Part shown: positions 1,447 through 64,000 of the stretch, piece by piece
Numbering within the stretch: the first letter of the stretch is position 1
How the letters are laid out: the number at the start of each line of letters is the position of its first letter
Source: an uncultured Nitrososphaerales archaeon
GTDB taxonomy: Archaea > Thermoproteota > Nitrososphaeria > Nitrososphaerales > Nitrososphaeraceae
Assembly: GCA_963695855.1 (NCBI GenBank)
Contig: CAVOHZ010000008.1
Span: 64,001-128,000, forward strand
DNA: 64,000 nt
Reading direction: 5' to 3'
The notes under the pieces: generated by a model
Seen by the model: only the letters and a program-made list of their open reading frames with translations
Told to the model about the DNA's origin: nothing
Databases searched by the model: none
Position numbers and translations under genes: made by a program

Positions 1447-1481
1447 GACATTTTTATTTTTGTTTCTAAAAAATAAATAAA

Positions 1482-4942: not shown

Positions 4943-4980
4943 AGGAAAAGGATCTACAATTTCATATTTGTATGTTTTTC

Positions 4981-6508: not shown

Positions 6509-7827
6509 GGTACATGCAGGTTATCAAGTTGTACATGAAAATTATAAACTGAGGATTGATGGCAGATTGAACGCAAGTTGGTATATGATGCATCGTAAAA
6601 TTATAAAATTGTCGGTGACAATATTTAACTGACTATATGGATAGAGAAATATAGATTCTTAAGGGCTTATAACTACCCTTTGTATTGCTAGTAAACGCAT
6701 CAGAATACGGATTGTTTTTAGTATACCAATTCATTTTATTGGACCTTTTTGAAAATCTTGGTAGAAGCAGAAGATATAGTCTTCTGACTCATTAGTTAAA
6801 AAGACACATTTCAAGATGAATTATATTATACAAAGGACTATTGATAGCAAATTTGATCATTCTGATCAATTTCATGTCGTAATCCCTGAATCTCTCTTTT
6901 GTTAAATTGTTATGCGTATCTCCGTGGTTTCATTTTTCACTTTTCTTTACGCACTACATTTCTTAATGAACTTGGAAGAATACCTGTTTTTTCATCGACT
7001 GTTTGCATGAATACCTTAACGAAACAAGTTCCCTGACAATTCCCATGCCTGTTGCAAATCCAGTGATAACAGTTGTTATAAAAAATTTTTCGAAAGTGTT
7101 AGCATTAGCTGGAGAAAAGAAACTTTTATCTCTTCTTATCCTTCTTACATGATTAACTTTTTCGTTTTTTTGTCACAGTTTATTTTTGGTTTTTCAAGCT
7201 TTTAAAGATCCTATGGATCTGTTTTTATATTTTATCCAATTCATTTTTTTAAAAATCTGTGAACACATAAAAATATAAATATTAAATAGTTTCTCCTCAA
7301 TCAGTATATTTTATACAAAATAAATTGAAAAAAATAGATTAAATTTCAAGGAGATTTTTGAAATAATGAAAGATGTTGCAAATAGAAATCTCAATATGGA
7401 ATTGCAGCTTTCTTAACCGCCCTTGATCATCAGGGAATTAGGTATTGATGAAACAACTAGTCTTATTTAGAAATAAGAGCGACAACTCTTAATGAAGGGA
7501 AAGACTTCTTTATTTCTATGGCTCAAAATGACTCCACTCTATAAATATGGATGATAGTAGAAAAGAAATTTTAGATCATTTCAGAAATATTTTGGTGAAC
7601 TTGGGAAAGAAAGTTGAAAATTTGAGAATTACACTATCTAATTGATCTGTCTATATACAACGAGATTATTGTTTTAAAAATATGAAAATATATTAATTGG
7701 AGTTTTCTTTAAATGATAATACCTAGAAGATAAACAAGTTGGATGTGTCAAAGAAATTGAAATAAAAGCTTTCTCTACACGTATTTATAATGTAATTGAA
7801 TCTCTTATTTTAGTGACTATTATATAA

Positions 7828-8940
7828 TCATTTAAGGTCTGATTGAATCATTACGAGTTTATCAGTTGCCGATTCTGCACCCCATACTTCTCCTGACCGT
7901 CCGAGAATCTGACGTACTTCGGCATCTTCGCTAGGCAAGGAATATATCTTAAAACTTTGTTGAATCGGATCAAATCTAACTAAGGCATTAGCTCCGAAAT
8001 CGCTTAACCATACAAAATCATTCGTATCTACATATATAGCATAAGGTTGCGGATTCACTCCTGGAAGTCTCCACTCCGTCCATTTGTCTATAGTAGAATT
8101 ATAGACGGCCAGTTGTCCTGCATTCCACTCACTAACCCATAAATTTCCATGAGAGTCGGACCAAATACGTCTAGCCCCTTGGTCAGGTGTAGGTGGTTCT
8201 AACACAGTACCAGCTCCCGTTTCTAAATCAATATTTACTATATGGCTTCCAGCCAATGAGGCATAGTAGATGCTACCATTTGGTGTGGTGGTAATCCCAT
8301 AAGGTCCTCTTCCTTCAGGTGCATTGAAGATTTCAACATGCCCAATTGATGGATCTAGGCGACCATAAATGCCACTCTGTCCAGTAAACCATAGAACACC
8401 ATCATTGTCGAATGTAGCAGTATTCAGATTAGCATAACTACTATTTGCAGGTAACGGAAAGAGTCTGATCTCTTCAGTTTCGGGATCAACACGTACAATT
8501 GCATTCAGACCACCATCTGTTATCCAAGGTGCACCATCCGGGCCTACAATGACACCGTGAGGTGCTGAGCCGTAACCGAGTTTAATGTGATGGGTCTTAC
8601 CAGTAACTGGATCTAATTGACCCAATTCACCAGATCCTTGTGCAGTATACCATACATTTCCATCAGGGGCAGGAGCAACATCATGTGGACGTGAGCCTGC
8701 TGGAATGGGAAATTCTTTTATAATGTGGTTGACTGATGGTTCAGCATCAATCAATTTAACCATTGTCATAGAAATAAATTTAGACAATAAAATTTCAGTA
8801 TGAAGAGAAAGATCTATTGTAGGTACTGTTGATTCTGGGAGTACTGGCTGAACTGCTGTCTCGATTATATAACCAGAACAAGACCAGATTACCAATAGTC
8901 CTATTAAATATTTTGTAGTTATACTCCATGAATCTAACAA
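7828..8940 (-). CDS. Virginiamycin B lyase (Vgb) family beta-propeller; true start probably ~8770
   Basis: PHDVAPAPDGNVWYT, PHGVIVGPDGAPWITD, GPYGITTTP, QPYAIYVD, VRQILGR..EVWGAES. Confidence 0.85.
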   Translation of the reverse strand: MLDSWSITTKYLIGLLVIWSCSGYIIETAVQPVLPESTVPTIDLSLHTEILLSKFISMTMVKLIDAEPSVNHIIKEFPIPAGSRPHDVAPAPDGNVWYTAQGSGELGQLDPVTGKTHHIKLGYGSAPHGVIVGPDGAPWITDGGLNAIVRVDPETEEIRLFPLPANSSYANLNTATFDNDGVLWFTGQSGIYGRLDPSIGHVEIFNAPEGRGPYGITTTPNGSIYYASLAGSHIVNIDLETGAGTVLEPPTPDQGARRIWSDSHGNLWVSEWNAGQLAVYNSTIDKWTEWRLPGVNPQPYAIYVDTNDFVWLSDFGANALVRFDPIQQSFKIYSLPSEDAEVRQILGRSGEVWGAESATDKLVMIQSDLK

Positions 8941-27507: not shown

Positions 27508-27603
27508 GGGGCTATCGTCTAGCTTGGATCAGGATACCATCTTCAACTTGAGGGTATAAGCCTGGGGCGCTGGCGGTCGTGGGTTCAAATCCCACTGGCC
27601 CCA
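27508..27603 (+). tRNA. tRNA-Pro(GGG) with 20-nt non-canonical intron at 29/30 (27540-27559)
   Basis: Acceptor GGGGCTA/TGGCCCC-A; after splicing CCAGC-CT-GGG-GC-GCTGG; T-arm GTGGG-TTCAAAT-CCCAC; strict BHB (ATAC/GTAT helix, CA^T and AA^G bulges). Confidence 0.93.
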
Positions 27604-37872: not shown

Positions 37873-38018
37873 TGGTCTCACTTTATGGAGGGCTTCAAAT
37901 CCCACTGATTTGACTACGAAGGCATATGGACCCATTTTTATAATGAAATATGGAATATATAATGCTAATTAAAAATACATTTTTTAGGTCAAATTTGTTT
38001 CACAAACCACTGGCCCCA
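37873..38018 (+). repeat. att junction 5 (composite double site; same type as 62687-62851)
   Basis: tggtctcactttatggagggcttcaaatcccactgatttgactacgaag...taggtcaaatttgtttcacaaaccactggcccca. Confidence 0.88.
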
Positions 38019-49405: not shown

Positions 49406-49537
49406 ACTGATCTCACTTTATAGAAGGGTTCAATCCATAGAATTATCATGGGACCAAAATTCATGTCAAATTTGTTTCACATCCCACCGGCTCCATATAG
49501 TATAAGGGGACAGTTAAAATATAAGAATATTATGTAA
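49406..49537 (+). repeat. att junction 7 (composite, arm B)
   Basis: actgatctcactttatagaagggttcaatccatagaattatcatgggaccaaaattcatgtcaaatttgtttcacatcccaccggctcca-tatagtataaggggacagtt. Confidence 0.9.
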
Positions 49538-49860: not shown

Positions 49861-50011
49861 CGGCAAACATCTATTCACCTTCTTTATGAGGTAGTAGTAT
49901 AGCCGCTCGGATATTGGTTCAGTCAGAGCCTCACTCTCGTACGGAGTATGTTAACTTTGAACCTAGCCTGAATACAGAAGGGATTGGTACCCAATAAAGA
50001 TTTTCATATAG
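49861..50011 (-). mobile_element. Probable IS110-family left end with bridge-RNA-like non-coding region; transposase truncated after ATG
   Basis: Flank GGCTCTGA-CT then ATATGAAAATC; the same GGCTCTGACT recurs inside; ends GGTGA (SD-like) + ATGTTTGCC. Confidence 0.5.
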
Positions 50012-50398
50012 TCAGAGCCATTTTTAGCATAGGAGAATAGTCTATCTTTGTAAACAGACCTTCTATTCCATTATTATCATTGAATTTATGAATCCACTTC
50101 CTAATTGTTTTGTCGTAAGTGTTGGTCATCTCTCTTATCTCTGGTACTGTGTACCCGTCATTAGCAAGTATAATTTTTATTCTATATTTTATTTCTGGAT
50201 TTGTATCCCATGCAAAAGAGTATACAGTTTGTTTATCTCTTTATCTGTAATTTCTCTGATGGGAGTTATCTTACCACACCACTGAGTAAAATACACTCAG
50301 CTAAAGTACTACCTATCAGAAATAATTTGTCAAAAAGGTAAATGGTAGTTTACTATAATTGTCAATCTATGCATTTACATAACTCTTAACTTAACGTA
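50012..50398 (-). mobile_element. IS630-family transposase N-terminal remnant and left end (partial second copy of the end at 28006-28066)
   Basis: YRIKIILANDGYTVPEI.......KTIRKWIHKFN...GIEGL HTH; ctacctatcagaaataat...gtcaatcta.gcatttacataact shared with 28013-28054. Confidence 0.7.
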
Positions 50399-50408
50399 GC
50401 CATTAAGA

Positions 50409-51491
50409 CTATTTGGTTAATTCAAAGTGATCTATTATTTTATCATTATCATTTGAGTGAAATTCTCCTACTATTTTTGTACCATTATTTTCCAATTCTA
50501 AATTAAGAAATCCAAAATCGTCTTCGTCCTGTATTACATAATAATCTTCTCTATCCACAATCTCTTTTAGTTTATCTCCTGCAGTACCGACAGTTAGAAA
50601 TATGATACCATTCGGATTATGATAATAGTTAGGGTTAGGATAATCTTGAGATATAGAATTATTTTCTAGAGTTCTAGTATAGATATATTCTAGGTCAGTT
50701 TCCTCATCATATATTGTTACAATTTTAACTTTATTTGGTTTATAAGTTACATAGTCATTAGTTAGTGGATATGTCCTTTCATAATATTGGTTATGACTTG
50801 AAATTACCAAATCTACATTATATTTTTCAAAGAGAGGATGATAGGTATCTCTAAGTTCTTGTGCAATATCCAGATCATTTCTAGTAGAATATAATGGTTT
50901 ATGACTATGAACTATTATCCAATCAATAGTTTGGTTCTTGGATGTTTTTTCTAGATCATTTTTGATAAATTCGTATTGCTTACTTCCTTCTTCAAAAGGA
51001 TGTTCGGTAGACAAACTTATGAAATGAATATTTCGAAAGTCATGTGAATAATATGGATTTGTTAAATTATGGTATTTAACAAGTTGTGTATATATTTTTT
51101 TAAATTCAACATCATGGTTTCCTATAGCAATTTCCATCTTGTTCTTTATAGGCTCTGACATTTCAGCCCAGCATTTGATAGATTGTACATCTTTCACATG
51201 ATCTCCAGTAGTAATTATCAGTTCAGGATTAATAGAAATTATATTTTCAATAGTATTTTGTGTTTCATCATTACAGTAAAAATCGCCAACAGCAACTATA
51301 TTGATATCATTGTTTTGATCATCGTTTATTGTTAATTGAGAAAAATCGGATTGTTGGCCATACACTATTACATTATTCATATAAAAAGAAAAAAATAATA
51401 ATAAAAAAGATATTACTGCAATTTTTATATTATTATTAAAGATTCTAATTTGAGAATAAAAAAAACTATTATTATTACCATTGTGTGGCAT
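50409..51491 (-). CDS. Exported metallophosphoesterase (purple acid phosphatase-like)
   Basis: AVGD, TTGD, IGNHD, HKPLY, SHNQYYERT. Confidence 0.88.
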   Translation of the reverse strand: MPHNGNNNSFFYSQIRIFNNNIKIAVISFLLLFFSFYMNNVIVYGQQSDFSQLTINDDQNNDINIVAVGDFYCNDETQNTIENIISINPELIITTGDHVKDVQSIKCWAEMSEPIKNKMEIAIGNHDVEFKKIYTQLVKYHNLTNPYYSHDFRNIHFISLSTEHPFEEGSKQYEFIKNDLEKTSKNQTIDWIIVHSHKPLYSTRNDLDIAQELRDTYHPLFEKYNVDLVISSHNQYYERTYPLTNDYVTYKPNKVKIVTIYDEETDLEYIYTRTLENNSISQDYPNPNYYHNPNGIIFLTVGTAGDKLKEIVDREDYYVIQDEDDFGFLNLELENNGTKIVGEFHSNDNDKIIDHFELTK

Positions 51492-52120
51492 ATCAATTAA
51501 TGATTTTATCCTTAGTCTTCGAATTTAATAGTTTTATGACATCATTCTGTAATGAGATAATATTAAATAATTCGATATTGTTAAATGAAAAATATTTCTG
51601 GAATCAAAATATTATGGATAATCATGAAACTGGAATCTTTTGCAATATACCTGTAAATTGTACTTTTTTACACCCATCAACTTCCTTATTCATCTCTTAT
51701 ACATATTGTTGCTGCATTGATTATATACTGGCTAACTTAATTGCGTGTATTCTGTGATATTGGAAAATATCAATTTCAAGTGTAATAAACATTTTTTATC
51801 CAAAGAATTTGTAAATGAATTTTTGTTAGTCAGTATAGTAATGGGTTTTCTGTTACTCGATGGAGCATTATCTCTATTGACTAACACCTTGATAGGCACT
51901 TTTGCCATGTTTGGATAAGTATCCATTTATTATCTTATAAAGATCGTTCTCTAAATTCCTCAACTATTTGGAAAGATTCGATTTTGTATAATTAATGCCT
52001 TGGTTATTTTTATATTTGTATTTAGAAGAATCTAATCGTATGTATTATCGCATGTAGTAGTATTATTAGTCCTAGTAATTTCTATGTTTAATAATTTTAG
52101 AAATGTATGATGATTAAATT

Positions 52121-52253
52121 ACTGGTCCCACTTTATAGAAGGGTTCAAATCCATAGAACTATCATGGGGCCGAAATTCATGTCAAATTTGTTTCAAATCC
52201 CACTGGCCCCATATAGTATAAGGGGACTGTTGAAGTATAAGAATATTATGTAA
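52121..52253 (+). repeat. att junction 8 (composite, arm B; close copy of junction 7)
   Basis: actggtcccactttatagaagggttcaaatccatagaactatcatggggccgaaattcatgtcaaatttgtttcaaatcccactggcccca-tatagtataaggggactgtt. Confidence 0.92.
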
Positions 52254-52321
52254 AACAATAGATCAAGAAATGTATTCCTTTATTTTTATTTTACATTTAA
52301 ATAGACATACTTGTATGGTAG

Positions 52322-52340
52322 TCGAGTCCCACTCCCGGCG
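52322..52340 (+). repeat. 3' fragment of a different tRNA (tRNA-Ser-like), probable foreign attR
   Basis: TCGAGT-CCCAC-TCCCGGC-G = T loop, T stem, acceptor 3' strand and G discriminator. Confidence 0.5.
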
Positions 52341-52912
52341 CTCAACTCGTGGGTTGTTTAAGAACACCATTTTATTGCCTAAAATCTGCAATGTTGAATA
52401 CAAGAAGAATAAGAGTTTTCGGTACCCGTATTTTTCATGTCTGATGCTTGTCCCCAGAGATATTATGGTGCAAGTGGCAGGTTATTTATCTAATGTAATA
52501 ACTAAAATATGTAAAACTACCGAAAGCAGGAAGGATCTTGAAAACAAGCAAGAATATATGACTACATATCAAGGAATGAATTCCCTAGAAAGTTAAAACC
52601 TATTAGCGGAAGATAAATAGATTAATAAGTTGACCAGATAATGTAGATATTATAAACATAGATATAAAAATTAAGATTGATAGAATGAGAAAAATAAGTT
52701 CAAGCACTGTAATAGTTCTGATATCAGACCTTAATTCTTTATACTCTTCTAATAAAGCTCGTGTTTTGATATTATCTTGACTATGAAATTCGTTCAACCA
52801 ACAGAATTAACATCTAGTATGTAAATATACATATCTTTGAACAATATTTTAAAATTTATCATACTATTAGTCATATGTATAAAATATTATATCCATTTAC
52901 AAGTAATTATAA

Positions 52913-54559
52913 TTGATAAATAAAAATAAATTTCTGTGGGGTGCATCAACTTCTTCTTATCAAGTAGAAGGAGCAATAACAAAAAATGATTGGCATATCT
53001 TTACAACCTCTGAAAAAATAAAGAAAAGAATATCAAATTTAACTAAACCCAATTTATTCTATAACGGAACTAATCAGGTTTTTTTACAACCAGCCGGTGA
53101 TGCGTGTCGAGTATGGGATCCGCTTTATTATAAAGAGGATTTTGATATAGCCAAAAAACTAGGAATGAATGCTATTAAATTAAGCATAGAATGGTCGAGA
53201 GTAGAACCTGAAAGAGATGAGTGGAATGAAAATGCAATTGATCATTACAAGACAATGTTAAAATATATAGTAGAAAAAGGCCTAAGACCTGTTGTAACAT
53301 TAAATCATATAACTTTGCCAATATGGATACTAACACCACCAACAGAATTTAAAAAGAGAATATTTCAATTCTTTTTGCCATCACCTTATTCAGATATTCC
53401 TTTATCAGAACCTCCTTCTTCTGATCCATATTGGAGATCTTTTAGGGGATGGGAAAATGATAAAACTATTGAAGAATTCACTAAATATGTATCAAGAATA
53501 GTTCAAGAATTCAAAAATTTAGTTGATTATTGGATAACACTATCTGAACCTATTTCTTTAATAGGTGGAGGTTATATATCTGGAATTTGGTCTCCAGGCT
53601 TTTTTCTAGATGGAAATCGAAGTAAAAAAGTATTACATAACCTTATAGAAGCACATATACAAGCCTATAATATAATAAAAGAATTTGATGATGTTGATGC
53701 AGATAATGATGGAAACACAAGTATTGTAGGATGTTCACATATGATGATTAATGTATGTCCTGCTACATCAAAAAAATCTTTAGGAATAACTATTAAAGAT
53801 AACGAGAATAATATTAATGCAGCCAAGAAATTCGACTATTTCGTTAATGATTATTTTCTAAATGCAATAATAAAAGGAGAAGAAGATGTAAACTACTTAA
53901 ATAGCTTAGAAATAGGAAACAAATATAGCAAAAATTTTTTAATTCATAAAAATTGGATTAATAAATTAGATTTTATAGGTTTAAACTATTATCGCAAAAT
54001 GGTTGTTTATGAGAATAAAATAGTTTCTTTATCTTCAGCAAAATTCGTAGGAGGAGCTGTTATAACTAATCTTCATACTCAACGTAAAAGAAGAATAGAT
54101 GATAATACTATTTTAAATGATTTAGGATGGGAAATTTATCCTATTGGACTTTACAATATGAGTAAAAAAATTAATAATAAATGCGCAAATATTCCAATTA
54201 TTATAACTGAAAATGGTATAGCAGATAAAAATGATAAAAATCGTGGTCCGTTTATTATAGCACATCTTGAACAAGTAAGAAGAGCAATTAATGATGGAAT
54301 AAATATTATTGGTTACCTACATTGGTCTTTATTAGATAACTATGAATGGCAGGAAGGTTACAGGGAAGAAGGCAAATTTGGTTTATTATATATTGACCAT
54401 GAAAATTCTGATTTTAAAAGATCGATAACAAAGGGAGCAAACATATACAGCTTTATTATAAAAAAATCTATAAATGCTAATGAAAAAATTAATAGTTCTG
54501 CAATAATAGAGGCTAAGAAAACTTTTGGAGTATTTACAGAAGAAGGGACATTAATGTAA
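52913..54559 (+). CDS. Glycoside hydrolase family 1 (beta-glycosidase)
   Basis: FLWGASTSSYQVEG, SIEWSRVEP, TLNHITLP, acid/base TLSEP, GLNYY, nucleophile ITENG, WSLLDNYEW..G...FGL. Confidence 0.93.
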   Translation: MINKNKFLWGASTSSYQVEGAITKNDWHIFTTSEKIKKRISNLTKPNLFYNGTNQVFLQPAGDACRVWDPLYYKEDFDIAKKLGMNAIKLSIEWSRVEPERDEWNENAIDHYKTMLKYIVEKGLRPVVTLNHITLPIWILTPPTEFKKRIFQFFLPSPYSDIPLSEPPSSDPYWRSFRGWENDKTIEEFTKYVSRIVQEFKNLVDYWITLSEPISLIGGGYISGIWSPGFFLDGNRSKKVLHNLIEAHIQAYNIIKEFDDVDADNDGNTSIVGCSHMMINVCPATSKKSLGITIKDNENNINAAKKFDYFVNDYFLNAIIKGEEDVNYLNSLEIGNKYSKNFLIHKNWINKLDFIGLNYYRKMVVYENKIVSLSSAKFVGGAVITNLHTQRKRRIDDNTILNDLGWEIYPIGLYNMSKKINNKCANIPIIITENGIADKNDKNRGPFIIAHLEQVRRAINDGINIIGYLHWSLLDNYEWQEGYREEGKFGLLYIDHENSDFKRSITKGANIYSFIIKKSINANEKINSSAIIEAKKTFGVFTEEGTLM

Positions 54560-55267
54560 CTTAAATGGATTAAAATTTAAAAAATAACAAATCACTTAGT
54601 AATGTAAATTTTTGGGAAAAATTAAGTTCAAAAACCGTTTAAATGTATTATTTTATAAAACTTTTTAAATTTCGTCTATTTTCTTTTGTAAGAATTTTAG
54701 GGTTACATAAAATGTTTATGAATTATGCATTAGGCCTCTAACATAATATAAGAAGTTATAACATTCGCAATTTTACTACAAATACGGAGTTTTGTTGTGT
54801 GGTCATTTTGCCTAGTCGTAAATTTATTTATTATTATGATAGATATAATATTAATGGATTTAGAAAAAATAAAGATATCTTGTCTAATGTATAGTAGTTG
54901 ATTGATTCAAAGATACTTTATAGCACTATAATTATCCTCTGTGGTTCACCTGATGCTGTTGGACTTGCATAAGCTATATTACATTCAAAAGATTGACTAA
55001 CCGTATCAACTCCTAATTGAATGAGACAACCATAAACTACAGAACCTGTTTTCACCAGATTATCCATGGCTATGGGAACATCTACCATTTTGAGGAGAAA
55101 ATGAATCTTCTTGACCTGGTTGAATAACAGCCTTAGATCAACTTTTTTCATTTGAATTTCTTTGTCGGTACTTATCAGATCAACTCTTATTTTTAACAGA
55201 AAGAATACAAGAAATAGAAAGAAAACAATCAAAATAATATGTAAATTTATCTATTAAAAGGGTTCTC

Positions 55268-55302
55268 TGGGATTTGAACCCTTCTATAAAGTGGGAACAG
55301 TA
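55268..55302 (-). repeat. Inverted att-like site (type-2 arm) just downstream of the E2 gene
   Basis: Reverse complement tactgttcccactttatagaagggttcaaatccca matches 52120-52152. Confidence 0.85.
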
Positions 55303-55479
55303 CTTTGTGATTTGAATATATATGCACTATATTCGATTAACATTATTAGACTGAAACCGAATTGGCAGTATAATGACCTATTTTCCAGAACCAATTCGTA
55401 ATCTCTCCTTAAAAGGTCTTTTATCGATAAATCTTATCATATCATATTTGGGTTTGATGTATGGCTAGAAGAGTTCAGG

Positions 55480-55935
55480 TTACGGTTCTTGTTCTTCTCT
55501 CCAGCCCCATATCCCCTTCTTTTTCCATCTTATATAAGCAAAAATCCAAGTCTTGATCATTAACCCTACATCATATGAGCTATAGTCACTTGACCAATCT
55601 TCATCAGGTTTTAGATAACAGATAGTATTGTCTATGAACATATGGGGAGTTTGTGTTGGATCAAGATCAGGTTCTATTATACGTACTTTAGGAGGAAACA
55701 AAGGATAGTCTTGAACATATTCTATTAGAAAAATAAAGCATGTTTTTTCAAAGCTTCCTTCAATTTGAAGTTGTGTTACAGGTAATTCAATTACTAACCC
55801 AATATTCCCATTGTCCATAATGTGAAACTTCCATCTGGTATTCAATTCAAATGCTCCGGCTATCTCGTTTGCTTCGTATTGTATACTTCTATCACCATTT
55901 CCTACTACATTAATTGAGTTGTTCAAGTTAATCAC
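55480..55935 (-). CDS. Prokaryotic E2 (UBC-fold) conjugating enzyme
   Basis: IEY..DYP..PPKV....P......PHM.....ICY.....W...Y....V...IKTW; catalytic Cys retained; overlaps the E1 stop. Confidence 0.85.
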   Translation of the reverse strand: MINLNNSINVVGNGDRSIQYEANEIAGAFELNTRWKFHIMDNGNIGLVIELPVTQLQIEGSFEKTCFIFLIEYVQDYPLFPPKVRIIEPDLDPTQTPHMFIDNTICYLKPDEDWSSDYSSYDVGLMIKTWIFAYIRWKKKGIWGWREEQEP

Positions 55936-57184
55936 TTGTTGGAATGCCTTTGGAACATATTTGGCAGTCGGGTATCCGTTCTAATATACGGTCTTCCTGA
56001 TATAAGACAAATGTTTCTACTTTATGATCAGGTAGGTTCTTATTAAACCAATAATAAATATCGGACTTGAATGATCCATCCATGTCTTTTTCTTCTAATA
56101 AAGTACTCAAAATAAATTTTACCGTTGGCAGGGTTATAAGATCAATATCTATTCCTAGCCCTGGTTGTGTCAACATGTCCTTTATATCTCTTCCATAATT
56201 TTTAATATAATTTTTATCTATAATTTGTGGCTTTTGAAATATTGTGTCATCACCATATTTTTTATATATACATCTATAACATATGGATTTTTTACGTGGG
56301 TCTATCCTTATCATTATTCCTCCAGTGATTTTTTCAAATGCACCTGCAAATATAATTGGTATATTTCTTCTGTAACCAAATTCATTAATCGATTCATTCA
56401 TGATATTGTCTCCTGTAGCAGAAACTATAAGGTCAGCCTTAGACAATAAATGATCAAAAAAATCTTCTATATTTCTATTTTCTCTAGAAAAAGGTTTTTC
56501 GATTGTAGTAATGTTAATTATAGGAACTCTGTCTAGAATATAATCTTTAACGGCTAATGTTTTGTATCGTCCAACATCCTTCAAAGAACAAATATGCCTA
56601 ACTATATTATGATCCATTATAACATCACCATCTATTAAAGTTAAATTTCCTACTCCACTCTTAGCTAGATGCAATGCTATTAATGAACCACCAGAACCTA
56701 GCCCTATTATTGCAACGTTTTTTTTATTAATTATTGATAACGGATATTCAGGAGTAGCAATCCTGAGATATAAATTTGAATAATCCTGTATAATAACAAG
56801 TATTTCGTATAAATTATTAGTCTCACTATCTTTGATAAAAATTTTTAAAGAACTTTCCTCTATTAATTCTTTCAAAGATATTTTAAATTGAGGAAGATCT
56901 GATATATTAAAAGTTAAATGAGAGTTGGCTAATATAATATTACCTAGATTGGGTAACTGATACGGTCGTGTGTTGTTGACGATTTGATCAATTCTTTGTA
57001 TTTGATATGTTGATTCATCAATGATAAAACCATTAACGGAAAATAGAAACTTTTCATTATTTTGGAATTTTTTGTCTAATAATATTTCTTTAACAGGAGG
57101 AAATATAACTAGAAATATAGTTTTTGTGTTTGTATTTGTTTTATCCTTATTATATAATATTAATTTATGATCTCTCATTGACAT
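55928..57184 (-). CDS. ThiF/E1-like adenylyltransferase with ~140-aa N-terminal extension
   Basis: IIGLGSGGS, IDGD....HNIVRH, G.YK, ATGD, Zn pairs CYRC and CQIC. Confidence 0.92.
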   Translation of the reverse strand: MSMRDHKLILYNKDKTNTNTKTIFLVIFPPVKEILLDKKFQNNEKFLFSVNGFIIDESTYQIQRIDQIVNNTRPYQLPNLGNIILANSHLTFNISDLPQFKISLKELIEESSLKIFIKDSETNNLYEILVIIQDYSNLYLRIATPEYPLSIINKKNVAIIGLGSGGSLIALHLAKSGVGNLTLIDGDVIMDHNIVRHICSLKDVGRYKTLAVKDYILDRVPIINITTIEKPFSRENRNIEDFFDHLLSKADLIVSATGDNIMNESINEFGYRRNIPIIFAGAFEKITGGIMIRIDPRKKSICYRCIYKKYGDDTIFQKPQIIDKNYIKNYGRDIKDMLTQPGLGIDIDLITLPTVKFILSTLLEEKDMDGSFKSDIYYWFNKNLPDHKVETFVLYQEDRILERIPDCQICSKGIPTSD

Positions 57185-58178
57185 TTTTAGCTTTCTCCTT
57201 TAAATAAATATTGGATAAAGAAAAAGCTTTTAAACCTGTAAATACATTTTTTAACCTCCTTTTCAAGACACTAATTCTTGTCTTATCACTTAGATGAGAA
57301 GTCTTATCACTTAGATGAGAAGTCTTATCAATATAATATTGTGATCTATCCACCATATTTTTTATTTTAGGCAATAATTCTACTCTATTAAAAAAAATAT
57401 CTGAAAATAGAATTTCTTCAACTATTTTAGTAAATTTACGATCTAATGTAACGCCGATACTAATTCTATCATTCATAGATATATTGAGATGTGGAAATTT
57501 AATAAATACAGAATAGACAATTTTATCCTTTGAAGTATACCAATTATCATTTGAACTGTAAATTTCTTCATAAAATAATTTATAATTCCGAGACTTATTA
57601 GATTGTGAATGGAGAAATGTTTTGCCAGTATAGTCTTTCAAATTTTTCGATAGATTGTCAACGAAATTTCGAACGTTTATTGTTTTACCATTAAAAAATT
57701 TATTTGACTGTTGTATATTAGTTATCCTCTTTATTTGAAGATCTTTTTTAACAAATTCATTTTTATCAAAATAATAATTAGTGGCTATGAGATTATAATC
57801 ATAATCATAAAAATCTATTATTAATGATAAATAGTTTCGTTTATGGCTATTCTGTAAGAGAAACAACTCAGCTTGTTTATCATCACCATTACTGGGACCG
57901 CCATATCCTAAATGCTTATGCCAATTTCCTAGATAAGTCAGATTATTTCTTTCCATTTGTTTGGTTATATTTATTGCAAAATCTTCATCCATTTCAAAAT
58001 AGACAGGTGTTCTTTTTGCATTAGCTGATGGTAACTGAATTATTTTTAAGATTATTAGATATTCTCCTATGATCCTACCAAAAAGTAATCCACCTGTTTC
58101 AACGTTTTTGTGACTATTACTTTCTTCGATGATATCATCAATTGTATTCTCTGTTATGATTAACTTGTTATGACTCAT
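57165..58178 (-). CDS. JAB/MPN+ (JAMM) metallopeptidase with C-terminal extension
   Basis: ETGGLLFG and YLGNWHKH.....PS..D; 21-bp tandem duplication (DKTSHLS)x2 at ~57280-57328; overlaps the E1 start. Confidence 0.9.
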   Translation of the reverse strand: MSHNKLIITENTIDDIIEESNSHKNVETGGLLFGRIIGEYLIILKIIQLPSANAKRTPVYFEMDEDFAINITKQMERNNLTYLGNWHKHLGYGGPSNGDDKQAELFLLQNSHKRNYLSLIIDFYDYDYNLIATNYYFDKNEFVKKDLQIKRITNIQQSNKFFNGKTINVRNFVDNLSKNLKDYTGKTFLHSQSNKSRNYKLFYEEIYSSNDNWYTSKDKIVYSVFIKFPHLNISMNDRISIGVTLDRKFTKIVEEILFSDIFFNRVELLPKIKNMVDRSQYYIDKTSHLSDKTSHLSDKTRISVLKRRLKNVFTGLKAFSLSNIYLKEKAKNVNERS

Positions 58179-58333
58179 TGTAATGTATAAAAATGTTTAA
58201 TATTGGGAATGGTTACTTTGCCTGTATCGACATCAACCATATTATCTTCATCTTTTCTTCTAAGAACTACTTCTGCAGCTTTATTTTTTATCCCTTCTAA
58301 ATCTTCAAACACATGCTTCAAATCTCTGGGCAT
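58175..58333 (-). CDS. 52-aa ORF heading the JAB-E1-E2 operon (not in the ORF track)
   Basis: MPRDLKHVFEDLEGIKNKAAEVVLRRKDEDNMVDVDTGKVTIPNIKHFYTLQ*; its TGA overlaps the JAB ATG (ATGA coupling); TATA box 22-29 nt upstream. Confidence 0.7.
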   Translation of the reverse strand: MPRDLKHVFEDLEGIKNKAAEVVLRRKDEDNMVDVDTGKVTIPNIKHFYTLQ

Positions 58334-58354
58334 GATATTATATATTAATAAGAT

Positions 58355-58370
58355 ATATTTAAGCTCTGTT
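58355..58370 (-). promoter_or_regulatory. Putative BRE/TATA promoter of the JAB-E1-E2 operon (leaderless)
   Basis: aacagagc-TTAAATAT centred ~26 nt upstream of ATG 58333. Confidence 0.45.
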
Positions 58371-58659
58371 AATTTAAGCTATATTCACTTCTTCCATTCA
58401 ATTCGTTAATAAAATAATTCTCCAATATTGTATCATTATACATAGAAAGGAAGAATTGTAACCAGCTATAAACGTGAAATAGATTGCATTCATTTGTGAT
58501 ACATGAATAGTAATCATGGATAGTAATCATCAAAAGATTCAGTCCGATCCTTGAAATACTGGTTAACTCTTTCCATCACATTTTTCTGAAATGGTGAATG
58601 TAGATAATGTTTTAATTCAATTACGTTACATGCTTTATCGTACCATCATATACCACGCA

Positions 58660-59276
58660 GATTCCCGCTTGACATTTAAAAGCTGATTATGTTGAAACAT
58701 GTAATTGTGATTATGGCTGTCCATGTAATTTCAACGGGGTTCCTACGTATGGTTTTTGTAGAGATTTACTATTATATCATATAAGAGAAGGAAATTATAG
58801 AGTTATAAAATTAGATGGTTTAGATGTATTTAGTGCATGTTCTTGGCAAGGCAATACCTGAAGGAAATGGCACAATGCAACTCTATATTACTAAAAAATC
58901 ATTGGAAGATAATAATGCAAAACATGCATTAATTGATATATTTTCAGGTAAAGCTAAAGGAGAAGATCCTTTTGCTATCTTTGCAGGGACAATAAAATAT
59001 TTTCTTGAACCTCAATTTGTAGATATCAATGTCAAGATAGATGGAAAGAAAAGTAGTTTCTCTGTTCCCGATATCATGGATGTACAATTAGAAAGTTTTA
59101 TAAATCCTGTAACTGGGGAAGAACAAGATACAAAGATACAACTACCAAAAGGGTTTATTTGGAAACTTGCAGAAGCAGCAAAAACAAAGATAATGCGTAT
59201 TACTACTCCAAGTTTAAATTTTGATGATTCTGGCAAGAGTTCATTTTATTCAGTTGTAGAGTATAGAGGACCATAA
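58660..59276 (+). pseudogene. DUF1326 family protein, disrupted
   Basis: ADYVETCNCDYGCPCNFNG.PTYGFC motif in a different frame from the C-terminal ORF; in-frame stop and frameshifts. Confidence 0.8.
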
Positions 59277-59395
59277 CTGTAGTAATAATAATAAATTCTC
59301 TATCTTCGGATTTCAAATTTGATTGGAGTGGATCATAATTTTAGTAAGTAATTAAGGTTAAGTATTTTAAAGTAATTAAGGTAAAATATTTTATA

Positions 59396-60211
59396 GTGTA
59401 TAAAGTACAAAAAATAATTCTTGTATCTCTAATCTTTGCTTCTTTGATAGCATGGATGTTCTCTATCAGGCAACCTGCCATAATGATGGATACCATGATA
59501 ACACTAAATCCTATTACAGTATTGCTATTTACTTTAGTCTGGACAGTAGGAATGGTTGCCATGATGTTTCCAGCTATTGTTCCTATGGTGTTATTGTATA
59601 ATCGATTGATAATTGCAGAGAATAAGAGTGATTATCTTTTTGATATTTCTAAACAAAAAAATAAGCGACAATTTCCATTAATCTTTTCCATTAATTATTC
59701 TGTAATGACGATAGTTTTTGTTACATCTTATCTTTTAGTGTGGTCATTAACTGGAATTTTACTCTTGTTGTCTTGGTCTTTCTTAATGAATAACTTCTTC
59801 ATAACTTATGGAGCAAAAGAATTAGATATTGTGTATGGATTGCTACTTGTTATTACTGGGCTATACCAATTTAGTTCATTAAAAGGAAAGTGTCTGGGAT
59901 ATTGTGAATCTCCTTTAGCCTTCTTTACGAGGAGATGGAAAGGAAATGGGATAAGAGGTGCAATAAAAATGGGAACATATCATGGACTATATTGCTTAGG
60001 GTGTTGTTGGCCTTATTTTCTATTAATGGTAGCATTAGGATGGATGAATATAGCATGGATGGGTCTATTTGCTGGAATAATATTTGGAGAAAAAATATGG
60101 TCAAAGGGAATATGGATATCCAGGTTTTCAGGAATTGCTTTTGCTATTGTAGGAACCCTGACTATTTTTGGAATGATTACATTGCATAATGATATTATAA
60201 ATATGCGTTAG
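59396..60211 (+). CDS. DUF2182 family predicted metal-binding membrane protein
   Basis: W..GMVAMMFP, YQFS.LK..CL.YC.SP, G.YCLGCCW...L.MV.LG.MN..WM; usual partner of DUF1326. Confidence 0.9.
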   Translation: MYKVQKIILVSLIFASLIAWMFSIRQPAIMMDTMITLNPITVLLFTLVWTVGMVAMMFPAIVPMVLLYNRLIIAENKSDYLFDISKQKNKRQFPLIFSINYSVMTIVFVTSYLLVWSLTGILLLLSWSFLMNNFFITYGAKELDIVYGLLLVITGLYQFSSLKGKCLGYCESPLAFFTRRWKGNGIRGAIKMGTYHGLYCLGCCWPYFLLMVALGWMNIAWMGLFAGIIFGEKIWSKGIWISRFSGIAFAIVGTLTIFGMITLHNDIINMR

Positions 60212-60467
60212 TAAATTCATTTTGTCAAAAAGAAGATGATTCTATAGTGTTATAAGATTAATTATAAAAATATCTTTTAAGAATCGAGTTCGCCTAAATA
60301 TTCAGTAAGCTAGTCTGGAGTGGACTCGTCAATGAGTAGGGTTCGACTTGTATTTAGCTTTTATTATTAGAAACTTATTTTGAATTAATAATAATAAATA
60401 TTATTATAATAATAAGTTTGACTGTACATTTCCGAGAATATTATAGAAGCACATGAACGTAAAATTT

Positions 60468-60537
60468 GGGGCAAAAATTTAGGTCAGATTTGTTTCACAT
60501 CCCACTGACCCCATTTATAAATGGATTCATATACTTT
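60468..60537 (+). repeat. att junction 9 (arm C, followed by type-2 integrase stub)
   Basis: ggggcaaaaatttaggtcagatttgtttcacatcccactgacccca-tttataaatggattcatatacttt. Confidence 0.88.
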
Positions 60538-60584
60538 TTGTGTATCATACCATTTGTAGAAAAAAAGGAGGAATAAACCGGTGA

Positions 60585-60872
60585 ATGCTTATGAAACTAA
60601 TTAATACCATTGGAAAAATTCAAACGGTTCCAAATTCTACTACTAAATAAATATTAAATAAATTTCTTGGATATATGAAAGGTAATGGTTCTTCTTACTA
60701 TCATCAAAATAATAATCTAAAAGTTGTTATTCCATTTGCCATTTATTTGGATCCATTACTACATTCTATAATATCAATAAAAAAGAACAAATACTATCAT
60801 TTCTAAACATAAAAATAAAGAATCAAGAAGATGACCCAGATAAGAGATGGATTACAACATGGAACAATCACC
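60585..60872 (+). pseudogene. Probable integrase N-terminal remnant (type 2)
   Basis: MKL..TIGKI...PN...*..FL.YMK.NGSS..HQNNNLKV...KEQILSFL..KIK....DPDKRWITTWN; homologous to 62906; stop and frameshift. Confidence 0.7.
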
Positions 60873-60956
60873 TGGCTACATGTTAGCAATCATAAGATTC
60901 ATCGAAAATCGCTGAATAGCGAAATACAGGATCGTAGAATTCTATAATAGGTTCTA

Positions 60957-62051
60957 TTATACGAAAGAAACATGTGAAAGGAACAAGTCGTCAAAAAATT
61001 GAATAAAATCCTTATTATTAATAACATCATCTCCAAATATCCCAAAGCTTATTACTTTGCCATTTCCATATTCCAATTCATAAGCAGCTATAAGATAATT
61101 GTACATAGATTGAGCTTTATAATCTATTAAAATATTTACATTTGGATTGGTTATATATTGCTCTTCGTGATGAACGTATGAAAATGGATTGTTATTAAAA
61201 TCAATAGAACATGAACTACCACAACCGAAATTACTACCCACCCATTCAGTAGTTTCATCAGCCCATCTTTCTTTAATATCTCTCCAAGCCTTTTCTCCAT
61301 CGAAAGCCCAACGATGTCCTTGAACGAGTGTGATCTGCTGATCCATTGGATCATAAATAACTTCAGTATAGAATACATTTGAATCAAGTAAAATAAGGAT
61401 ACCGCCGTTTTCTACAAATTTTTTGAAGCTATAGTATTCTTCTTGAGTTACATATTCTTGGTGTCCTAGAATAATAAATTTATAGAGATTTTCGGCTTTC
61501 TCACTAAACAATAAACCATTATGTATATCTATGTCCGTTAAAAATGATACTTCCATATTCGGGGACAGGAATGAGATGCGATCAGCTAAATGTTTTAAAC
61601 CACTAGACTTCTTATTTAAAAATGCTAGTTCCTTGGTAGGAACCTGAGATGATAATAACTGAAGATCTGTAGTTACGAATTCATTTTGAGTAACTTTGCC
61701 ATATTTTTTAAAAAAAATATAAAATGAGTTGTCATAGGCTGCCATAGTGAAGGTAGGCAATACAAAGGCTATTTTGTTATCCTTTTCTTGGCTAAAAGGA
61801 GTAACGATAGATTTTCTATCCTCTTCAAGTGTTGGGCCACTTTTATATGAACGAAAATCTTTTATAATTTCTTTTAAATAGTAATTTTGGATAATTGTGT
61901 TATCTAAATTTTTTTCATCCATTTCGCTTGCATATTCATCTTCAAAATCATAATAAGTCTTCTCACTTTGCGAAAAAGTATTACCAACGGAGAGTATAGA
62001 TGAAGAAAAGATCAGAATAACAGACAGTGCCAAATTAAAAGTAATAAGCAC
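60957..62051 (-). CDS. Exported N,N-dimethylformamidase beta-subunit-like (GATase-like) domain protein
   Basis: P.FT.AAY, TDIDIH, ILGHQEY.T..EY.....FV.NGG.L..L.SN.FY.EV. Confidence 0.7.
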   Translation of the reverse strand: MLITFNLALSVILIFSSSILSVGNTFSQSEKTYYDFEDEYASEMDEKNLDNTIIQNYYLKEIIKDFRSYKSGPTLEEDRKSIVTPFSQEKDNKIAFVLPTFTMAAYDNSFYIFFKKYGKVTQNEFVTTDLQLLSSQVPTKELAFLNKKSSGLKHLADRISFLSPNMEVSFLTDIDIHNGLLFSEKAENLYKFIILGHQEYVTQEEYYSFKKFVENGGILILLDSNVFYTEVIYDPMDQQITLVQGHRWAFDGEKAWRDIKERWADETTEWVGSNFGCGSSCSIDFNNNPFSYVHHEEQYITNPNVNILIDYKAQSMYNYLIAAYELEYGNGKVISFGIFGDDVINNKDFIQFFDDLFLSHVSFV

Positions 62052-62686
62052 AATTACTTATTCCAAAAATTATTTAAATAGGGAATGTAGGACTCTCTCT
62101 ATACATTTGTTAATGCTTTCTTACAGTTAGTATCTTATTTTTTCTTATATAGTGACAATATAAAATAAAATTATATCCTTATATTCTTAGTAACAAATCT
62201 ACAAACGGTAACTTTTAAAAATCGGATCGTTATATAATCTACATACATCAATAACATATCTTATCAATTTATCATGGTCCATAAATCCATGAACCATGCA
62301 ACAAGGCAGGAAAGTTATCAAATTTAATTAGAGAGAATAACAAGTATTATGTCAGTTGGAAATGAGTTTTCCACTCGTTACCTCTCTAGAAGCATATATT
62401 GCTGAATTAGAAGCTAAAATATCGAATGTGATAATCACAAAAAAACTAAATAACAATCGAAAATACAAATTACAAAAGACGTTATTAGATTCTAATTCAA
62501 GAGGCAATCAAGATCAGACTTAAATAGATCATCCTGAAGCAATATTTTAAGGAAATTTATCAACGACTAAAAGAAAGATAAGTTCTGTTTGTTATTTGAT
62601 CCAATAACGAAAAATCCATTTGCTTTATAATATTGAAATAAGTACGGGATTAACTGTTATTAAAAAATCTTTAATCTAAAGAAGTA

Positions 62687-62851
62687 ACTGGTCGCACTTT
62701 ATAGAAGGGTTCACATCCTACTGGTTTGACTACGAAGCCATTGAACCCACTTTTATAATGAAATATATAATGCTAATTAAAAATCCATTTTTTAGGTCAA
62801 ATTTGTTTCACATCCCACTGGCCCCATTATATAAGTGGGGTCATATACTTT
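62687..62851 (+). repeat. att junction 10 (composite double site, arm C)
   Basis: actggtcgcactttatagaagggttcacatcctactggtttgactacgaag...taggtcaaatttgtttcacatcccactggcccca-ttatataagtggggtcatatacttt. Confidence 0.92.
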
Positions 62852-62905
62852 GAATTTGATATTAGAATTTGTAAAGAAGGATAAGAGTAAGAGTAAAGAA
62901 AGAAA

Positions 62906-63390
62906 ATGTCACTAAAACTATCTACAACAATAGGAAAGATTAAGAATATTCTTAATACAAAAAATATAGAGATTATAAATGAATTCCTTGAGTATATGAG
63001 AAGTAATAATTCTTCAGAACATCATCAAAATAACAATTTAAAGGTCGAAATATCATTTAGTAATTTTATAGGTAAAGATAAATCTTTTTATGGCATCAAT
63101 AAAAAAGAACAAATTAGAATTTCTTAATACTAAAATTAAAAACTATGAGGAAGCTTCTGATAAAAGATAGATAACTACTTGAAATAACTATCTAAATAGG
63201 TTTAGACTATTTTATAGATGGTTGTATAATCATGAGAAAGATATTGATCATGAAAATTGGCAAACTCCTGAATTAAAATAAAGAATAAAAAAAGTAAAAG
63301 AATATCCTCATACCTAGAAAGGGAAATTTGGGAAAAAATCAATTATTATCAATAATCTAATACGAGCCTTATACTAGGAATGAGGTCGCT
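62906..63390 (+). pseudogene. Probable integrase N-terminal remnant (type 2)
   Basis: MSLKLSTTIGKI...EFLEYMRSNNSSEHHQNNNLKV, continuing across lesions as NNYLNRFRLFYRWLYN...WQTPE...KRISSYLE.EIW. Confidence 0.72.
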
Positions 63391-63482
63391 TGGAAATTTA
63401 GAATACAAATGTCATAAAACATCAAATAATAGATAGCTAAAAATGTATCTACGATCTTTGGTTAGTCAGTATATTTTGGGAA

Positions 63483-64000
63483 TTAATCATAGACATATCC
63501 CAAATCTATTGTTTTACGTAATTCAGATTCATTGTAAGTCCAAGGATCCATTATTGCATCATTACCATTGAGAGAAGGATGTAAATTCAGATGGTCTTCT
63601 TGCCACTGACTCCATATACGATCAATATTGGCATGATGTAACCAAAATAAAATATCAACAGGAGATAAGCTAGTAGCCATGATGCCTCCTACCCAGCGGT
63701 GAAGTCTATTATGTGTATCGGTTTCTAATCCAAATGTTCTATATTTCCAGCCTTCTAGTGCATCAGTAAATTTTGTGAAAGTTTGTTGTTGTTTTACTAT
63801 ATTTATATCACTTGAAGGGGGTAATCTATTAGCATTCGGATCTAAACCTGGTCTTCTTTGAACGTTTCTTGGTATGCCTTCAACAACTACGGTCGGAGTA
63901 AAATTTTTTAGCCAATCGGGAATATCTGTGTCTACAGTCCAATCCCAATATGGAATATATAGAGAAGGATTCCATGCCCTTAACCCTTGTTCTAATTCAA
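63483..64000 (-). CDS. Tyrosinase (type-3 copper), N-terminus outside the window
   Basis: Open frame from the window end: IPYWDW ... HNRLHRWVGG.M....SP.D.LFWLHHANIDRIW (CuB site). Confidence 0.9.
   Translation of the reverse strand, partial: ELEQGLRAWNPSLYIPYWDWTVDTDIPDWLKNFTPTVVVEGIPRNVQRRPGLDPNANRLPPSSDINIVKQQQTFTKFTDALEGWKYRTFGLETDTHNRLHRWVGGIMATSLSPVDILFWLHHANIDRIWSQWQEDHLNLHPSLNGNDAIMDPWTYNESELRKTIDLGYVYD

Follow-up and report, generated by a model that had tools for sequence, protein, structure and literature searches.

The window analysed here is a stretch of 64,000 nucleotides (nt) from an uncultured Nitrososphaerales archaeon (assembly GCA_963695855.1, contig CAVOHZ010000008.1, positions 64,001 to 128,000 of the forward strand). 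Our subject is a cassette of four genes on its minus strand which encode, in order, a small protein of 52 amino acids, a JAB/JAMM metallopeptidase, an E1-like adenylating enzyme and an E2-like conjugating enzyme. The source names of homologues place the host in the Nitrososphaeraceae. The parts of the cassette are as follows.

58334..58390, minus strand: promoter block and 5' boundary of the cassette, holding the TATA-like element 58353-58363
58175..58333, minus strand: small open reading frame (ORF) of 52 amino acids, the proposed modifier precursor; residues 1-49 (58187-58333) end ...KHFY and the tail TLQ occupies 58178-58186
57165..58178, minus strand: JAB/JAMM metallopeptidase of 337 amino acids; catalytic domain 1-152, C-terminal alpha/beta domain ~164-295, long helix 298-333
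55928..57184, minus strand: E1-like adenylating enzyme of 418 amino acids; beta-rich N-domain ~20-132, ThiF/UBA5-type adenylation domain 134-418
55480..55935, minus strand: E2-like conjugating enzyme of 151 amino acids with a GTG start; His98 and Cys106 (55618-55620)

The first-pass annotation of this DNA had described four minus-strand genes with overlapping ends behind a TATA box, and both parts of that description hold. The ORFs lie at the coordinates above and overlap by 4 nt (small ORF/JAB, the stop codon of the one overlapping the start of the other), 20 nt (JAB/E1) and 8 nt (E1/E2), and an AT-rich, TATA-like element is found at 58353-58363. Since this element stands only about 24 nt 5' of the small ORF ATG, it suggests a leaderless or nearly leaderless mRNA. 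It falls within a block of about 55 nt upstream of the small ORF that aligns in all nine of nine loci from the same genus, similarity being gone farther upstream; at the other end, DNA similarity among the genus loci fades within about 50 nt past the E2 stop codon. Contigs from RNA libraries (four runs of three studies on soil or the rhizosphere) cover stretches of the operon and span the small ORF/JAB junction. They attest presence in RNA libraries, not strand or level, and the holes that they leave over parts of the operon carry no weight; that they reach 58323, with none beyond, is a weak hint on the 5' boundary. A scan for sigma-70 sites (29, against 27.5 expected) and terminators (0) concerned bacterial-type signals and is uninformative for an archaeal host.

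Codon-by-codon inspection located all the motifs that had been named for the three enzymes: E27, H87-x-H89, S96 and D99 in the JAB; the P-loop GLGSGG (G161-G166), N193/R196 and the zinc-binding pairs C302xxC305 and C407xxC410 in the E1; and TPH98M and IC106Y in the E2. Pfam recognises the JAB (Prok-JAB, E 1e-5) and the E1 (ThiF, E 1.5e-27, residues 152-312), while the matches of the E2 are all sub-threshold (UQ_con, E 0.0045; Prok-E2_B, E 0.013). PADLOC, proposed in the first-pass annotation as a check on each gene, matched the three enzymes to ancillary models of the cyclic oligonucleotide-based antiphage signalling system (CBASS), namely CBASS-type JAB (2e-12), E1-E2 (2e-29) and E2 (7e-9). 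The small ORF product had no match in Pfam or PADLOC.

High-identity E1 orthologues are present in 13 of the 24 other genomes (species) of the same genus and in none of 36 genomes from elsewhere in the family or order, where the only matches, at 26-35%, are to a housekeeping gene of ThiF type that the host genome has as well. In the 11 genus loci the genes stand in the order small ORF-JAB-E1-E2 wherever the contig reaches, eight of them having all four genes, with identities of 73-90% for the small ORF, 60-71% for the JAB, 78-84% for the E1 and 78-87% for the E2. That the same four genes stand in the same order in every related locus long enough is far from chance. What lies beside the cassette changes with the species and consists of ordinary accessory genes, with insertion sequence fragments in one locus. 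The genes that flank it in the window (GH1, DUF1326, PpoB2 and others) occur beside it in 0 of the 11 genus loci, bar paralogue-level metallophosphatase matches (31-47%) in two. These changing neighbourhoods, together with the patchy distribution, show frequent gain or loss of the cassette.

A scan of species-representative genomes with the E1 alignment yielded 17 loci, 15 of them in Nitrososphaerales, one in Promethearchaeota and one in Hodarchaeota, and in a sample of the Asgard phylum an orthologue at E <=1e-40 was found in 13 of 301 genomes. A metagenome scan gave 138 relatives, the best 80 of the 138 being kept. By identity and gene order the relatives fall into five groups.

Group A: the window's genus
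Group B: other Nitrososphaeraceae-like; E1 about 52% identical, JAB only about 220 amino acids
Group C: Asgard-like, about 36-44% identical; order JAB-E1-E2-E2
Group D: acidic-proteome archaeal-like; E2 genes on both sides
Group E: high-GC bacterial, about 31% identical; order JAB-E2-small ORF-E1

Wherever an archaeal-type locus, be it from a metagenome or a genome, extends far enough, the small ORF is found upstream of the JAB gene; this holds for all eight genus loci with a complete cassette and two more loci that reach it; in an apparent exception (locus L078) it lies 150 nt upstream. The small protein falls into 39 database clusters, none with a Pfam domain and any name being 'hypothetical protein', and a search of the ESM Atlas with the 52-residue protein gave no usable match. 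The archaeal peptides comprise 27 distinct versions of 32-54 amino acids, rich in Lys, Glu and Asp and all beginning MPR, a final count that used a regular expression presupposing the motif, the peptides having first been located by position and BLAST. Their conservation runs to a C-terminal ...[T/N]xPxx[K/D]H(F)[Y/F], and the sequence is free after the aromatic residue: 13 tail variants of 0-5 residues are seen (none, F, GN, DS, TLQ, NGT, NDT, SDT, NDS, FLL, LLL, LLNDL and LLNDP). Six of the 27 stop exactly at Tyr, all six in Asgard-type or group D loci. At 33 amino acids, the product in the Asgard relatives would be too short for a beta-grasp fold.

Within the genus, the mean proportions of synonymous (pS) and non-synonymous (pN) differences in the small ORF are 0.31 and 0.087 over 45 pairs (pN/pS 0.28). 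Between the copies of Promethearchaeota and Hodarchaeota there are 16 synonymous differences (about 21 sites) and only two non-synonymous ones (about 78 sites), and the DNA similarity of this pair extends from about 7 nt before the small ORF start codon to the stop codon. Strong purifying selection is clear, and this ORF is a genuine gene inherited along with the enzymes. Ubiquitin-like precursors show the same layout, a conserved motif at the C-terminus and, past it, an extension that can be dispensed with. The conserved end, variable tail, purifying selection and constant presence together make the peptide a likely modifier. The first-pass annotation had left three candidates for this role, the 52-residue product, a fragment released by the JAB and a host SAMP or other ubiquitin-like protein (Ubl); the comparative evidence now favours the first. 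From the sequences we conclude, with moderate confidence, that the cassette is a self-contained ubiquitin-type conjugation pathway whose modifier is the product of its first gene and not a beta-grasp protein.

The partners expected of better-known systems are missing. No beta-grasp Ubl, RING protein or cGAS/DncV-like nucleotidyltransferase (CD-NTase) had been noticed near the cassette, and the family searches agree: no ubiquitin, ThiS, RING or SMODS family was matched among the eight ORFs of 52913-60211 and the 14 ORFs of at least 90 amino acids in 36388-63998. A search of the whole genome (99.87% complete) gave 0 matches to SMODS (PF18144), whose control matched in 3 of 14 genomes, and 0 to DUF6527 (PF20137), whose control matched in 1 of 14; a genome-wide search for PF00240 also gave no match but is uninformative, its control matching in no genome. 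No cyclic-nucleotide-activated effector family was found among the neighbour ORFs scanned. In a survey of homologue neighbourhoods, as the first-pass annotation had suggested, the ubiquitin, ThiS, MoaD and Urm1 families were matched by 0 of 90 neighbour ORFs across 15 diverse loci; the archaeal loci have ordinary neighbours.

The cassette might be read as the decaying, functionless remnant of a CBASS- or Bil-type system whose cyclase or Ubl is gone, given that the matching PADLOC models are all CBASS ancillary ones and that cyclase, effector and Ubl are not present. Decay is very hard to square with a four-gene unit with intact motifs and no stops, held at 60-90% identity in 13 of 24 congeneric species and found again elsewhere in the Nitrososphaeraceae and in 13 of the 301 genomes from Asgard archaea, with a first gene under purifying selection and with the occurrence of the cassette in RNA libraries. 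We regard it as highly improbable.

A more serious alternative starts from three ThiS-family beta-grasp proteins encoded elsewhere in the genome. The small protein would then be an accessory factor, whether a regulator, an adaptor or a pseudo-substrate restraining the JAB or E1, and what is conjugated would be a host protein of ThiS/MoaD/SAMP type or the C-terminus of an unlinked protein. In CBASS, as far as the accessible text of the Cap2 preprint goes, the substrate is a non-Ubl protein from another gene, and in one bacterial relative (L106) the module lies between two SMODS genes and a 4TM effector, so that the cyclase could be the substrate there. One of the ThiS-family matches, however, shares a 464-residue open frame with the housekeeping ThiF-type gene (G000:C2:31773-32465), a sequence arrangement that suggests a ThiS-ThiF fusion; the ThiF part is about 27% identical to the cassette E1 and is kept in nearly all relatives, with or without the cassette. 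There is, besides, no SMODS gene in the whole genome. The aromatic end and disposable tail, with some copies ending at Tyr, are what a C-terminally activated substrate would have and are unexpected of a regulator, and the peptide gene travels with the enzymes across phyla. An accessory role is in our view unlikely.

The E2 retains the residues expected of an active enzyme of its class. His98, Cys106, Pro82, Pro89, Trp130 and Tyr134 are invariant in 26 of 26 E2s, and Cys106 lines up with the catalytic Cys of UBE2A. An E2 with the invariant His and Cys is present in every archaeal-type locus long enough, with two copies in Asgard loci and at least four around the group D locus L082, while the cassette E2 is the sole member of its family in the host genome. 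At L082 itself (1213-8878) four E2 paralogues surround a peptide-JAB-E1 core, with a DDE transposase nearby, and there is also a 413-residue protein in which a long N-terminal region precedes a C-terminal E2 of the cassette E2 family.

The JAB is equally intact, E27, H87, H89, S96 and D99 being invariant in 21 of 21 sequences. Its structure model (predicted local distance difference test, pLDDT, 83.9) contains a standard JAMM domain, for which structure searches returned Pyrococcus furiosus JAMM1 (Z 17.9), BilC (Z 14.4), BubCD (Z 13.2) and Cap3 (9ild_A; Z 15.9, root mean square deviation 2.7 over 138 residues); against the Caldiarchaeum Rpn11 homologue the template modelling (TM) score is 0.74-0.77, normalised to the target. 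The C-terminal alpha/beta domain (~164-295) is confidently modelled and has a conserved FPxx[FY]P-like motif. For this domain the structure search gave Z scores of 6.6 or less throughout (Med17C, DR_1245, 2plg). It may or may not be an inactive E2, RWD or UEV domain: hhalign against the family E2s aligned the FPxxYP motif alone (31 columns, probability 5.9%), and Pfam RWD was matched by 1 of 21 members (E 0.17). The C-terminal tail of the window's JAB also holds a perfect 21-nt tandem duplication (57280-57321), which repeats the heptad DKTSHLS and is not in the orthologues. Because JAB and E1 are fused in a natural metagenome protein of 676 amino acids (P0119), in the same domain order as the BubCD fusion, the two are predicted to be functionally linked.

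The E1 has one ThiF domain, its model (pLDDT 82.2, pTM, the predicted TM score, 0.81) having a single adenylation domain at 134-418. This domain aligns equally well with UBA5 (Z 27.1), ThiF (26.9), MoeB (26.8), Atg7 (26.0) and MccB (24.7); Foldseek with the whole model ranked ThiF first and aligned Cap2 over the largest number of columns (463), and a profile of 38 E1s against the Protein Data Bank (PDB) ordered its matches ThiF, MoeB, UBA5, Cap2, MccB and PaaA. The P-loop, D185, N193 and R196 are conserved in all 38, and the adenylation domain also has D259. The window's E1 has five cysteines only (199, 302, 305, 407 and 410), of which Cys199 adjoins the Arg-finger motif. Between C305 and P341 the crossover loop varies in length and has no conserved Cys across the 38 sequences, and within it Tyr330 (56195-56197) is invariant in 38 of 38; in the model residues 322-341 of the loop fall below pLDDT 50, and the loop is probably flexible. 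Among 1.84 billion proteins, a profile of the N-terminal domain matches just 24 representatives (10 at E <=1e-10), and this type of E1 is therefore rare. That this domain might be a degenerate E2 was considered and rejected, since it has no similarity to the E2 family (hhalign probability 0.2%).

With the single E1 sequence as query, the best PDB match was MccB (8e-12, alignment from residue 116), and PaaA was also matched by the profile. These hits bring in a maturation like that of peptides made by the ribosome and modified after translation (RiPPs), in which the ThiF-like enzyme would activate the peptide C-terminus for a reaction within the peptide or with a small molecule, such as cyclisation or nucleotidylation, the JAB would serve as follower or leader peptidase and the product would be a free bioactive peptide. 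According to the accessible part of the ThiF review, ThiF-like RiPP enzymes use an extra N-terminal peptide-binding domain, the RiPP recognition element (RRE), and adenylate the C-termini of small precursor peptides, MccB and IndF acting on small peptides and IndA ending in the aromatic-rich NWYFI. An extra N-terminal domain is predicted for the cassette E1 also, but it is modelled as beta-rich. Moreover, neither E2 nor JAB is mentioned in that review, whereas an E2 with invariant His and Cys is found in every archaeal-type locus reaching it and is multiplied in some. The cassette has no exporter, immunity or further tailoring gene, its conserved DNA ending about 50 nt past the E2 stop, and the peptide is long, hydrophilic and Lys-rich. 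We think a RiPP-like route improbable, more so than an accessory role for the small protein.

In the conjugation pathway that we infer, down to every chemical step, processing site and role, the four genes would be transcribed together from the conserved TATA-like element. The JAB would remove the tail (TLQ here) after the invariant aromatic residue, giving a 49-residue Lys/Glu-rich peptide that ends ...KHFY, and may also reverse conjugates. The E1, probably a homodimer like ThiF and UBA5, would adenylate the carboxylate of the C-terminal Tyr, its N-terminal domain probably holding the peptide. From there the peptide might pass to Cys106 of the E2, speculatively either straight from the adenylate or via a Tyr330 oxyester as in Bub E1s. 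The E2 would finally couple it to lysines of target proteins without an E3, and where relatives have additional E2 paralogues, these would broaden the range of targets. Put more generally, and with a little less than even confidence, the peptides could form an unrecognised class of tag: 32-49 residues, probably unstructured, starting Pro-Arg once Met is removed and ending His-(Phe)-Tyr/Phe, matured by a JAB and conjugated to lysines by an E1 and E2, with a Tyr oxyester or no covalent intermediate on the E1 and a thioester on the E2.

Several points weigh against a peptide modifier. The E1 pockets of ubiquitin-like systems normally take Gly, and an E1 crossover loop without Cys bears on the route by which the peptide would reach the E2. 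The C-terminal domain of the JAB and the N-terminal domain of the E1 have no assigned fold. The three ThiS/MoaD-family genes elsewhere in the host genome are substrates in principle. Variability of the tail may partly stem from its overlap with the JAB start region, and the invariant N-terminal MPR has no explanation in the model. Archaeal and group E bacterial peptides have no detectable homology, and the archaeal loci have no defence genes beside the cassette.

The bacterial relatives nevertheless offer a parallel, of organisation and logic and not of proven descent. In 24 of the 27 group E loci examined, an ORF of 60-87 amino acids lies directly upstream of the E1 gene (the exceptions are L085, L087 and L116). 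The last conserved residue of these peptides is Phe (...DGFF, ...EGFF, ...KRF, ...TRF, ...KMF), invariant in an alignment of 11 representatives, and the tails past it are again diverse (none, A, I, C, SC, AC, CC, AR, AS, SARS, YLAK, ACRLP, ARRLLP and one long tail).

The surroundings of group E loci are defence islands. In L106 the module is preceded by two SMODS genes and followed by an S_4TM effector, and STAND NTPases adjoin the module in L087 and L114, the latter also with a PIN/Phd pair. The full order in L106 (1-5719), and in its twin L107, is SMODS-SMODS-JAB-E2(UEV-like)-60-residue peptide ending ...KRF+I-E1-S_4TM, a CBASS-like operon in which E1 and E2 are split and a small peptide with an aromatic end is encoded, for which it may be asked whether the peptide, the cyclase or both are conjugated. 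In L091 (2062-8141) the genes past the JAB-E2-peptide-E1 module are, in turn, one for a ThsB-type TIR protein, a further ORF, TIR_2 and a fragment of an integrase gene.

The first-pass annotation had called the archaeal system probably antiviral. Its bacterial cousins, beside SMODS and 4TM, TIR and STAND genes, lend this indirect support, while the ordinary neighbours in archaeal loci do not. Judged by its patchy distribution, its shifting context and what lies beside the bacterial cousins, the archaeal cassette has roughly an even chance of serving in defence or conflict; more broadly, an accessory system for conflict, defence or stress is the most likely role.

The first-pass annotation had further described the cassette as mobile cargo, with an inverted attachment site (att) arm about 180 nt past the E2 stop. 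A repeat does exist there, at 55270-55306 (174-210 nt past the stop), pairing with 52116-52152 and 62682-62718, but its identity as an att site is lost: it is a copy of a dispersed repeat. Allowing up to three mismatches, the 24-nt repeat core occurs 24 times in the genome (14 times on the contig of the cassette, five times in the window), and an exact 21-mer of it is absent from 36 of 37 loci, the sole match being the host genome's own locus. With 24 genome copies, and none beside the cassette in other genomes, the repeat was rejected as the boundary of an integrated element. The ORFs scanned in the window include no integrase or transposase flanking the cassette, and no tRNA gene lies near it, the sole ARAGORN call in the window being at 27508-27603. 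The claim of mobile cargo is thus not supported, there being no bounding att sites and no flanking integrase or transposase, though the cassette does move or get lost often. As to viral carriage, no E1 of the cassette family was found in IMG/VR, which yielded one distant E1 of other architecture (L118).

The repeats are a dispersed intergenic family of two modules of about 37 nt (52116-52218, 55252-55306, 60478-60537 and 62682-62851, also 37879-37902 and 49414-49437). One module contains a tRNA T-arm-like GGTTCAAATCC, and the copies on the contig cluster around the window; Rfam had no match in 50000-64000. The family could be a MITE-like element (miniature inverted-repeat transposable element) or a marker of a variable genomic region. 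The ARAGORN call at 27508-27603 is an odd tRNA-like gene of 96 nt whose anticodon has four bases (caac) and to which no amino acid is assigned, and it may be an intron-containing or unusual tRNA. Adjoining the cassette is a copper-related neighbourhood (58824-63998) with a DUF1326 protein, a PpoB2-type copper chaperone, a DMFA2_C-like protein and, at the window end, a tyrosinase-domain ORF. The viral contig L118 (1911-5792) encodes an E1 of 503 amino acids, preceded by a 424-residue protein with a C-terminal JAB; it is unrelated to the cassette family, and segments of the form '...DQDGTVLNPAD...' are repeated in the E1 N-terminus and the upstream ORF.

To our knowledge, what every E1-E2 conjugation system characterised so far transfers is a beta-grasp Ubl with a terminal Gly or, in the case of CBASS, an entire enzyme, so that a short aromatic-ended peptide, if confirmed, would be a third kind of modifier. 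It would show how far the E1 adenylation pocket and the JAB specificity pocket can depart from Gly-Gly, and would extend the Cys-free E1 chemistry of Bub to archaea, including the Asgard lineages relevant to the origin of ubiquitin signalling. A true tag class would span Thaumarchaeota and Asgard archaea, with an organisationally parallel, Phe-ended version in bacterial defence islands, and would mean that peptide tags came to use E1/E2 chemistry independently of the beta-grasp fold. By standard residue masses, trypsin would leave an HFY remnant on lysine in the genus (~447.2 Da) and HY in Asgard archaea (~300.1 Da), comparable to the diGly remnant. The cassette is self-contained in 2.9 kb and should be easy to express, and through its bacterial cousins near TIR, SMODS and 4TM genes, phage-challenge assays in laboratory strains come within reach.

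Among known systems, the ubiquitin operons of Caldiarchaeum and Asgard archaea share with the cassette an archaeal host and the union of E1, E2 and Rpn11-like JAB in one operon. They differ in encoding true ubiquitin and a RING E3, neither of which is among the cassette neighbours scanned, and the cassette E1 is of the ThiF/UBA5/Cap2 type. Pup, of actinobacteria, is a short, probably unstructured tag outside the beta-grasp fold, ligated through the side chain of its C-terminal Glu by the glutamine-synthetase-like PafA/Dop. Its likeness to the cassette peptide is in concept only, as a short protein tag; E1, E2, JAB and the aromatic conserved end set the cassette apart.

The ThiF-like RiPP pathways (MccB/MccA, PaaA, IndF/IndA) resemble the cassette in pairing a small peptide gene with a ThiF-type enzyme bearing an extra N-domain, and in the activation proposed here of a C-terminus other than Gly. 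They have no E2 or JAB and yield free modified peptides, and their N-domain is an RRE where that of the cassette is predicted to be beta-rich; the cassette, for its part, has no transporter or immunity genes and holds E2 and JAB and nothing else besides the peptide and E1.

Bil (BilABCD, families 6c/6d) likewise lacks an E3 and encodes its E1, E2 and JAB separately, and its JAB, according to the accessible text of the Bil preprint, trims a C-terminal extension of the modifier. That modifier, BilA, is a beta-grasp protein of one or two domains with a C-terminal Gly, while the cassette gene encodes 52 amino acids ending ...KHFY-TLQ, and against the two adenylation domains in tandem, one inactive and one active, and the mobile Cys domain of the Bil E1 (IAD-AAD-CYS) the cassette E1 has a single adenylation domain and no such Cys domain. 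Nor does the cassette match any of the five operon types 6a-6e in the accessible part of Iyer et al. 2006.

With Bub (6E/DUF6527) the likeness lies in the E1. As described in the portion consulted of Ye et al. 2024 (PMC11601596), the Bub E1 has a crossover loop without Cys but with a single invariant Tyr, on which a Ubl~Tyr oxyester is formed; judged by its sequence, the cassette E1 would likewise be a minimal homodimer-type enzyme with a Cys-free crossover loop and invariant Tyr330. JAB and E1 are fused in type I Bub, as in the relative P0119. The same portion of that paper (PMC11601596) gives Bub beta-grasp Ubls ending in Gly, an E2 with Ser for Cys and, always, a DUF6527 protease, whereas the cassette E2 keeps Cys106, the genome has no DUF6527 (BubE) and there is no Ubl (BubA).

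Type II CBASS is close in its enzymes, the best PADLOC matches of JAB, E1 and E2 all being CBASS models and the JAB being of Cap3 type, and the bacterial cousins adjoin SMODS and 4TM genes. In the accessible text of the Cap2 preprint, Cap2 acts on the C-terminus of cGAS and Cap3 cleaves exactly after its last residue; here too activation is proposed at the C-terminus of a polypeptide that is not beta-grasp. Unlike the Cap2 E2-E1 fusion, the cassette E1 and E2 are separate ORFs; the window lacks both CD-NTase and effector, and the genome lacks SMODS; a dedicated gene for the 52-residue peptide stands first in the operon; the E1 crossover loop is Cys-free; and the JAB has a C-terminal extension of about 185 residues.

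In the literature searched, from which subscription papers and supplementary tables that may list the family fell outside the scope, no E1-E2-JAB operon with a short aromatic-ended peptide was found. The first-pass annotation had seen in the cassette a distinct E1/E2/JAB module of conjugation type in a thaumarchaeon, and these comparisons bear it out, the cassette fitting no described subtype of CBASS, Bil or Bub. The E1/E2/JAB kind of system is itself known; what would be new, as read from the sequences, is its use with a new class of modifier and a mixed chemistry that joins a Cys-free E1, as in Bub, to an E2 that keeps its Cys.

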